Below are positions 43,512 through 44,565 of a DNA stretch of 64,000 nt, one piece after another. Numbering within the stretch: position 1 is the first letter of the stretch; each line of letters begins with the position of its first letter. Location of the stretch: assembly GCA_951406725.2 (NCBI GenBank), contig OX597819.1, positions 69,440,001-69,504,000 on the forward strand, in the 5' to 3' direction. Made by a program: the position numbers and the translations under genes. This stretch comes from Octopus vulgaris (taxonomy: Eukaryota). The notes below the pieces were generated by a model. That model did no database searches, was not told where the DNA came from, and saw only the letters and a program-made list of their open reading frames with translations.

Positions 43512-44565
43512 TACAATAAAAATGGTAAATAATTTTTCAGTGGTTTTTCATATAACCAACAATTATTTACCGGTAAATTTCGGTATGTAAATATGACAAA
43601 TTCATCGTCAGGAACTTCTGGAAAGTTCAGTATATAGTGAAAAAATTAAAGGGCATGTTTAAAACATGTTTCTGGATCACAAGCTCGAAAATAGCTTGAT
43701 TTCCTTTATCAACACCATATTCGATAGATTTTACCAAATGCCACAAGCCCTCACTTCTGACCAAGCGACATCAGATAGTGGGGGGAGGTGTACATATGTT
43801 AAAACTAAGTAATGACTGAGAATGTTCATCATTAACGGTAAGAGATTGGTTTCGTTTATTTGCTACTCCGTTTTTGCGTATGTGAATCGCAGGGTTCGTC
43901 GTATTTGGAAAATCCACTTATAGAAAATGGAAAAAACAGTCTTTGACTGCCATTTCTAATTCCTTCGGTATGCGGCGAGGCAGCCTGCTGCCCGCCCTTT
44001 AATTATTTTCACTATATACTGAACTTTCCAGAAGTTCCTGACGAGGAATTTGTCATATTTACATACCGAAATTTACCGGTAAATAATTGTTGGTTATATG
44101 AAAAACCACTGAAAAATTATTTACCATTTTTATTGTATTACCATGTGGACTTCTTATTCCATTGCGATCGGCCAGGCGGCGCGCACGGCAGAATTTTTGG
44201 AGGGAAAATTTACGTTCTCAGTCATTACTTAGTTTTAACATATGCACACCTCCCCCCACTATCTGATGTCGCTTGGTCAGAAGTGAGGGCTTGTGGCATT
44301 TGGTAAATCTATCGAATATGGTGTTGATAAAGGAAATCAAGCTATTTTCGAGCTTGTGATCCAGAAACATGTTCATCATTAACGGTAAGAGATTGGTTTC
44401 GTTTATTTGCTACTCCGTTTTTGCGTATGTGAATCGCAGGGTTCGTCGTATTTGGAAAATCCACTTATAGAAAATGGAAAAAACAGTCTTTGACTGCCAT
44501 TTCTAATTCCTTCGGTATGCGGCGAGGCAGCCTGCTGCCCGCCCTTTAATTATTTTCACTATATA
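43512..44565 (+). mobile_element. Penelope-like pLTR / retrozyme element: inverted 5' segments plus 547-nt monomer with 197-bp direct repeat, in (TA)n
   Basis: 43512-43654 = revcomp of 43994-44137; 43663-43822 = revcomp of 44215-44373; 43822-44018 = 44369-44565; HHR core at 44038-44085. Confidence 0.82.
44031..44093 (+). ncRNA. Hammerhead-like motif (core and helix III intact, stem I unclear)
   Basis: CTGACGA (44038-44), stem II closed by GG/CC, GAAA (44068-71), 14-nt palindrome ATTTACCGGTAAAT, then A44085 as H17; direct stem I pairing is poor. Confidence 0.55.

Follow-up and report, generated by a model that had tools for sequence, protein, structure and literature searches.

How an insert of about 1 kb comes to combine inverted and tandem pieces of one short unit within a (TA)n microsatellite, and whether that unit carries a working hammerhead ribozyme, are the questions raised by a locus in Octopus vulgaris. 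We analysed a 64,000-nt window around it (the window being the whole stretch of DNA under study), which consists of microsatellite-rich, animal-type DNA without tRNA genes and without any Rfam match at gathering score. The layout of the locus is real and is explained by known mechanisms, and its ribozyme is incomplete. The focal insert, 1,046 nt between two (TA)n tracts (43514-44559), represents a recent integration, about 1 kb long, of a short mobile element with no coding capacity into a TA microsatellite. The locus is mostly ordinary, since its layout agrees with a copying slip already known from retrotransposons, and a helix needed for cutting is missing from its hammerhead-like motif.

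Layout, target and neighbours of the insert

Comparison of the window with itself revealed three repeats around the focal insert and no further ones, and no second copy of the element elsewhere in the 64 kb. The order of pieces, A' B' C A D B C a, is borne out to the base as it had been described in the original prediction. A direct repeat (43822-44018 and 44369-44565; 197 of 197 positions identical) sets a period of 547 nt, as had also been proposed. The full unit, in the order C A D B and without coding relic, occupies 43822-44368 (+ strand) and is followed by a partial second unit (C and a; 44369-44565, + strand) that ends 20 nt before its core box. On the left, A' (43511-43654, − strand) is the reverse complement of A (43994-44138), with one substitution and one deletion in 145 columns; it carries a core box at 43605-43611. 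After an 8-nt junction insert (43655-43662), B' (43663-43822, − strand) is the reverse complement of B (44215-44373), with one substitution and one insertion in 160 columns. The copies are thus nearly identical, as claimed: four differences in 305 columns for the inverted pieces and none in 197 for the direct repeat. Recast in terms of copying, the locus consists of two pieces that meet head to head, one of 744 nt in sense orientation (C A D B C a) and one in antisense orientation that reads B and then A and skips the 167 nt of C between them; each piece carries its RNA 3' end on (TA)n.

The location inside (TA)n was likewise correctly recognized. The left tract (43415-43513) is (CA)n followed by (TA)n, with the TA run at 43477-43513, and the right (TA)n tract spans 44560-44585. 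Together they belong to a host interspersed repeat whose left part (43350-43414, + strand) and right part (44586-44733, + strand) are separated by the focal insert. In all six other matches to the left host flank in the window, the right flank follows co-linearly 65-141 nt further on; once the insert is subtracted, the focal flanks lie 126 nt apart (1,172 - 1,046). The repeat is abundant, and its internal (CA)n/(TA)n tract provided the (TA)n into which the focal insert went; it is found, for example, at 13340-13500, 17227-17718, 44875-45102 and 57103-57359, its right part having 17 other matches in the window. A separate 101-nt direct repeat (15816-15916 and 63611-63711; 96% identity) has its two copies 48 kb from each other.

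The junctions can be read closely, except that no target-site duplication is readable inside (TA)n. At the left end, the RNA 3' end of A' overlaps (TA)n by 3 nt, a TA match common to 30 of the 547 unit positions; the overlap at the right end is 6 nt, and only one of the 547 unit positions has such a match. A' stops at the 3' foot of a GC-rich hairpin (43974-43996, + strand; second copy at 44521-44543), more precisely 2 nt inside the 3' foot of the stem in the predicted circular fold. At 43654-43660, a 7-mer from the start of B' is repeated, possibly the mark of an aborted first landing or of a snap-back. B' meets C on one shared base at 43822. An 8-bp palindrome at the B/C boundary (44366-44373) coincides, in register, with both the start of B' and the start of the sense piece; B overlaps the sense-piece start by 5 nt there, and an unrelated breakpoint would fall so close in about 2% of cases by chance. 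All pieces are present in the order needed on a linear template 898 nt long (1.64 units) or on a single circle.

Three comparable inserts in the window were overlooked by the original prediction, as was the rod fold described below. The insert at 54435-55536, in (TA)n, has inverted arms of 189 nt, one of them about 70 nt longer, with a complete minimal hammerhead on each arm (55399, + strand; 54501, − strand) close to published Hydra-clade motifs. A second (TA)n insert, at 17805-18024, consists of short head-to-head arms of the same family with the same two end points; a U4-to-C core change is common to both arms, so that the RNA inserted there was a core mutant. The third is a partial tandem in (TA)n (about 38085-38735, + strand) with a period of 536 nt and a complete type I hammerhead at 38373 (+ strand), with a stem I of 7 pairs, a 51-nt stem II region and an 8-nt palindrome. 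Its 536-nt unit folds strongly (z -5.93), its nesting depth not being unusual (reached by 12 of 100 shuffles), and it is a better retrozyme candidate than the focal element. These three (TA)n inserts carry hammerheads of PLE (Penelope-like element) type, and since all are inverted or partial-tandem, the style of the focal insert is ordinary here. The focal unit itself is not recognizably related to them: in ten comparisons with the neighbouring inserts, the best local scores were reached by at least 89 of 300 shuffles, and a similarity over 50 nt with the insert at 54415-55540 (E 0.036) was lost in the shuffle test. Two further segments, at 55909-56082 (+ strand) and 28500-28714 (− strand), are related to each other (65% identity), begin with a core box with GAAA 13-14 nt further on, lack a full set of stems and possibly represent an older PLE family. 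To the left of the insert at 54.4 kb, a 42-nt near-palindrome (54254-54295; 90%) lies between two (TA)n tracts.

Hammerhead-like motif and fold of the 547-nt unit

The focal motif (44038-44085, + strand) comprises a core box at 44038-44044, a GAAA box at 44068-44071 after a 23-nt spacer, and a 14-nt palindrome at 44071-44084 that runs from A15.1 to U16.1, all three as originally reported. Judged as a type I hammerhead, it has the boxes CUGANGA and GAAA, an NUH site (U16.1 at 44084, A17 at 44085) and, in the palindrome, a 7-bp stem III. Stem I is missing: two of the first ten positions pair in register, and none of the first four. Stem II is reduced to two closing pairs followed by a weak 3-bp helix, with a predicted pair probability of at most 0.0001. 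What remains of the description of the unit as ribozyme-bearing is therefore the core boxes and the palindrome, which exceed chance. The reported G/T difference at position 10.1 is present (G at 44045 in the sense copy, T at 43604 in A', where a T-C mismatch replaces the G10.1-C11.1 pair that should close stem II), but it is no clear inactivation: of the 26 Hydra-clade rows in the table of PMC8557442, 15 have a T right after the core box, as counted by eye.

The margin over chance was estimated from 40,000 dinucleotide shuffles of the unit, in tiers picked after the motif had been seen. A bare core occurred in 5,543 shuffles and core plus GAAA in 1,196; adding any closing pair and a stem III of at least 3 bp left 65. 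With the G10.1-C11.1 pair, one shuffle had a stem III of at least 3 bp and none had one of at least 5 bp, and any closing pair together with a 7-bp stem III was found once. Given this wide margin, post hoc tiers notwithstanding, we take the motif as inherited, and we infer that it is a genuine remnant of descent from PLEs.

A complete hammerhead in the monomer, as originally proposed, was not recovered. With spacers of up to 120 nt allowed, a strict descriptor matched three complete type I hammerheads across the window but did not match the focal element, which still had no match when one core mismatch was allowed. Several substitutes for stem I were considered and rejected. Shifted by 2 nt, it would have 7 of 8 pairs, but 11,167 of 200,000 random pairings do as well; an 8-nt partner at 44147 is at chance level (7.3%); and when distant GAAA boxes or long stem III loops were allowed, every stem I obtained was 3 bp long and came with a loop of 78-90 nt. 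As a type III hammerhead, the motif would require U16.1, paired to A15.1 and followed by H17 immediately before the stem I hairpin, and C is found at 44019; the forced version has two extra bases and costs 9.8 kcal/mol. Rfam ribozyme models gave no match in the focal element at E up to 10, a silence that is uninformative since the complete hammerhead at 38373 was missed too. An HDV-like descriptor, run without a positive control, found nothing on either strand.

In place of stem I, a hairpin with six Watson-Crick pairs (44021-44037, + strand) abuts the core box, as had been noticed. Its proposed role as an alternative or inhibitory fold is unsupported, since the best stem I partner is at chance level and there is no demonstrable alternative stem I to switch to. 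In the predicted fold, a 6-bp helix buries the core, and an 11-bp hairpin (44078-44125, + strand) takes up the palindrome's 3' half. Forcing the ribozyme fold would cost 11.6-15.9 kcal/mol without stem I and 19.6-29.1 kcal/mol with the shifted stem I; by one common recipe, the focal type I fold costs 22.1 kcal/mol, against 1.7 and 5.2 kcal/mol for the complete neighbours.

Around the core, A matches A', which means that stem I was already missing from the template RNA. It is plausible, judging from the sequence and from precedents, that this RNA had no canonical ribozyme at the time it moved. Among PLEs, all 34 rows of one table list a stem I beside the core (read by eye; PMC8557442); the same source describes some Naiad elements with a core fitting no stem descriptor. 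A PLE protein studied in vitro performed insertion unimpaired by ribozyme mutants, and one PLE ribozyme is described as cutting only with its protein (both PMC11167929). For frogs, eight of nine predicted retrozyme dimers did not cleave (bioRxiv 10.64898/2026.07.22.740005). The focal locus has only one sense core and cannot release a monomer by double cleavage.

The rest of the unit offers a modest new lead, a predicted rod-shaped fold like that of a retrozyme RNA. In this rod (44145-44464, + strand), D is paired with C across B, with hairpin caps in B, through 90 nested pairs (39 A-U, 38 G-C and 13 G-U). The shuffle mean is 49 nested pairs and none of 100 shuffles reaches 90; the other strand has 35, reached by 78 of 100 shuffles, so the predicted rod exists only on the strand of the core. 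It starts 7 nt past the A/D joint and is self-contained. The linear unit folds at -160.5 kcal/mol (z -4.77; none of 100 shuffles as low), and the circular unit at z -4.29 (none of 120), its minus strand at z -3.95 (also none of 120). Folding energy alone is not exceptional in this genome: in the same noisy 10-shuffle test, 7 of 45 background windows had z of -3 or lower, against -2.7 for the focal one. Nine windows were at z -2.5 or lower, one of them overlapping the element, and the nesting depth of the other eight was 34-77; several low-z background windows owe their score to microsatellites or inverted repeats. Highly self-paired units are a mark of retrozyme circles (PMC7229834), and the focal unit is short, non-coding and highly self-paired.

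Coding relics were sought with Pfam in six frames read through stops and in separate ORFs, at E up to 1 or 10, and neither RT nor GIY-YIG was found; the only matches (E 0.16 and 0.076) were to unrelated families. Among proteins of 65-209 aa, none was homologous to a 119-aa ORF. By eye, a frame of 39 residues that crosses the A/D joint (44113-44229, + strand) resembles GIY-YIG; it was set aside for want of Pfam support. Scans for promoters of bacterial type gave background level, and phage and plasmid records contained no match to the focal element.

A proposed insertion path and its alternatives

The focal insert is best read as a Penelope-like passenger, non-autonomous and mobilised in the absence of a canonical hammerhead. 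Probably, a PLE RT-endonuclease acting in trans primed both DNA ends on one RNA, one of the cDNAs jumped over C, and the two were then joined. The template would be a non-coding, self-paired RNA of about 547 nt, either circular or transcribed as a tandem of 1.64 units or more. The enzyme would cut (TA)n, and synthesis would be primed from both DNA ends in a single event. The right DNA end would anneal at the best TA match of the unit (44018 in register) and copy 744 nt (a C B D A C), while the left DNA end would anneal at the end of A, copy 145 nt and stall at the foot of the GC-rich hairpin. The stalled left cDNA would then skip C, landing 167 nt further upstream on the 8-bp palindrome between B and C, and copy B, and the two cDNAs would finally be joined on the 1-nt microhomology.

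This path draws on the sequence, the junctions, the missing stem I and the interrupted host repeat, and on predicted folds; the RNA intermediate, the PLE enzyme and the order of events are what we infer. It is built on one locus of the family, with no second copy in the window. B' is the stretch just upstream of the start of the sense piece, the pattern of L1 twin priming with 5' switching, in which an internally primed cDNA moves to an uncopied upstream stretch and of which 20 cases have been described (bioRxiv 10.1101/2024.08.27.596794); twin and dual priming of L1 are also described in PMC2837659. Both priming sites lie in predicted unpaired linkers (mean unpaired probability 0.90 and 0.93, within the top 6.0% and 3.3%), an accessibility that is not independent of the TA match, since AT-rich linkers are unpaired anyway. 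The single Penelope-like insertion with a template switch that was originally suggested thus agrees with the junctions, which fit twin priming plus one upstream jump. Partial tandems, an adjoining inverted piece and a bias towards (TA)n, preferred by several PLE clades, are described for PLEs (PMC8557442; PMC8969392). PLE inserts can further show inverted repeats that overlap direct ones, palindromes at the junctions, deletions within the element and a non-adjacent inverted segment, features for which the authors favour self-priming on an antisense template (PMC3846280). The origin of tandem plus inverted PLE inserts is treated as still open in PMC8557442 and PMC11167929.

The alternatives concern the nature of the unit, the number of templates, the state of the ribozyme and the reality of the inverted pieces. 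The unit might be the 3' end (D B C A) of a longer autonomous PLE, the period of 547 nt being set by a chance 5' truncation, a reading that is partly compatible with the same insertion path and that we consider unlikely but worth keeping in mind. PLE copies are usually 5'-truncated and tandem (PMC8969392), A ends 100 nt past the core box, about where Hydra elements end, and Naiad prefers (TA)n and includes cores without canonical stems (PMC8557442); against this stand the lack of any RT or GIY-YIG relic in six frames or ORFs, the self-contained rod starting just past the A/D joint, and the unrelated insert at 38085-38735, with a similar period (536) and rod. Somewhat less probable is that two templates were used, by dual priming, which is known for L1 (PMC2837659), or in two events, the second copy landing at the edge of the first. 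The divergence of the inverted pieces (4 of 298 columns, against 0 of 190 for the direct repeat; p = 0.16 for the focal insert) would suit two templates equally well. When the four inserts of the window are pooled, 8 of 549 arm columns differ, against 0 of 294 in direct repeats (p = 0.056), a gap that could reflect two templates, assembly polishing or chance; it is not significant (p = 0.10 without one edge column), and two of the eight differences sit at junction edges. Two templates would, moreover, leave unexplained why B' lies directly upstream of the sense start.

We also doubt that the hammerhead is functional but conditional, the upstream hairpin being its off state and cleavage depending on a shifted stem I, a type III or dimeric form, or the help of a protein. 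An abutting 6-bp hairpin with core and GAAA arose in only 4 of 40,000 shuffles, the palindrome duplex is worth -16.7 kcal/mol (-6.4 and -7.4 in the two neighbours), the right end of the insert lies 2-8 nt from the type III cut site (near 44018-44020), and one PLE ribozyme needs its protein to cleave (PMC11167929). The shifted stem I is nevertheless at the 5.6% chance level and adds two extra core bases, the partner at 44147 fares no better, the type III form has C at 16.1, forcing the fold costs 9.8 kcal/mol for type III and 22.1 for type I, and two co-folded copies are predicted to pair through the core-burying helix and not through the palindrome. Still less credible is a later origin of the inverted pieces at the DNA level, in which a simple partial tandem would have been rearranged at its break-prone (TA)n edge by microhomology-mediated repair or by fork switching. 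Locally templated inserts and microhomologies, of which the locus has an 8-nt example and 1-nt cases respectively, are also marks of DNA repair. Microhomology deletions are, in addition, frequent in PLE copies (PMC3846280). Yet A' ends in a predicted single-stranded RNA linker and stops at an RNA hairpin, and the same end points recur in two further head-to-head inserts of the window. An artefact of assembly or amplification, a fold-back chimera or a collapsed repeat, appears very improbable. The pieces are near-identical and flanked by microsatellites, single-base indels in runs account for two of the four differences, and such structures are described as troubling assemblies (PMC8557442); the window, however, contains no N, the flanks rejoin as one host repeat at the normal spacing of 126 nt, and the junction insert and the two substitutions do not reproduce the sense unit.

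The layout itself has precedents, and neither a description of this family nor one of twin priming in PLEs was met in the literature searched, which took in few subscription papers and repeat databases. A young copy whose junctions can be read and match L1-style twin priming plus a jump is a usable data point, and these junctions argue for priming on sense RNA from both DNA ends. If the whole family proved to be without a working ribozyme, a retrozyme-like passenger could spread without self-cleavage, which would bear on whether PLE hammerheads are needed or ride along; one locus alone proves neither sense-RNA priming nor ribozyme-free spread. A more speculative and rather doubtful idea is that the motif is a conserved hammerhead opened at its own cut site, and not a decayed one, acting as a protein-binding, dimerising or trans-acting module, with the 5' hairpin closing stem I, the long palindrome closing stem III and no substrate in cis. 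It would then serve a family of rod-shaped RNAs of about 550 nt with retrozyme-like mobility and without self-cleavage in cis, standing beside the conventional 536-nt retrozyme-like family in the same genome.

Comparison with known systems

Two classes of element are readily set aside. A DIRS-type element, as defined in PMC8969392, would have either split direct repeats or terminal inverted repeats whose two termini are both matched by a short complementary region inside the element; here the left end has its partner in the middle of the element, and the right end simply forms a direct repeat. A MITE or another TA-targeting DNA transposon, with inverted repeats at its two outer ends, does not fit either, since A' and A bound only 43511-44138, and the element continues for another 427 nt up to the right (TA)n.

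The partial tandem with a head-to-head inverted piece is shared with endonuclease-positive PLEs (the Naiad and Hydra clades, PMC8557442; Adineta Penelope, PMC3846280). As described in the same two sources, (TA)n-targeting PLEs also have a palindrome at the inversion point, a (TA)n target without readable target-site duplication, two different 3' ends and a hammerhead core near one 3' end. Unlike them, the focal insert has no RT or endonuclease ORF or relic, and its ends differ by 120 nt, against a tail of 30-40 nt (PMC8557442, PMC3846280). Its 23-nt spacer falls between the core (7-17) and half-core (35-50) classes of PMC8557442, and its palindrome was not found by motif search in the supplement of that paper, where line breaks could hide a match. 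Compared with the minimal type I hammerheads of PLEs (defined in PMC4209133, reviewed in PMC6765202), the focal motif likewise has both core boxes, a potential G10.1-C11.1 pair, a palindromic stem III and an element end downstream; it differs from those of PMC4209133 in the absence of helix I (4-5 bp there), in having two closing pairs and a weak 3-bp helix for helix II (7-8 bp there), and in its unusually long stem III (7 bp).

With L1 (bioRxiv 10.1101/2024.08.27.596794; PMC2837659), the shared features are two DNA ends priming on one RNA, the upstream jump of the internal cDNA, the joining of cDNAs by microhomology, and internal duplication once the first cDNA passes the internal site. Unlike L1, the focal insert has no poly(A), TTTT/A site or target-site duplication; its template would be a tandem or circular non-coding RNA, and its enzyme presumably a PLE protein.

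Metazoan non-LTR retrozymes (PMC7229834; bioRxiv 10.64898/2026.07.22.740005), proposed to be moved by PLEs, resemble the focal unit in being non-coding, sub-kilobase, highly self-paired and present as tandems of more than one unit, with GC below 50% and, in the preprint, a size range of 51-972 bp that includes it. The focal element differs from them in having no complete type I hammerhead and only 1.36 units with one sense core. Its unit is also longer than the circles of 170-400 nt shown in animals, and its core is predicted to be buried where most metazoan retrozymes leave the core free. A retrozyme carries a complete hammerhead in at least two tandem units, and here the second unit ends 20 nt before its core; an autonomous PLE carries an RT and GIY-YIG ORF, of which the locus has none. 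Lacking the features that define a hammerhead and a retrozyme, the element is filed as neither. What it does show is the hallmark of a non-autonomous PLE derivative, a partial tandem with a head-to-head inverted piece in a microsatellite, and it probably works like a retrozyme or a non-autonomous PLE passenger.
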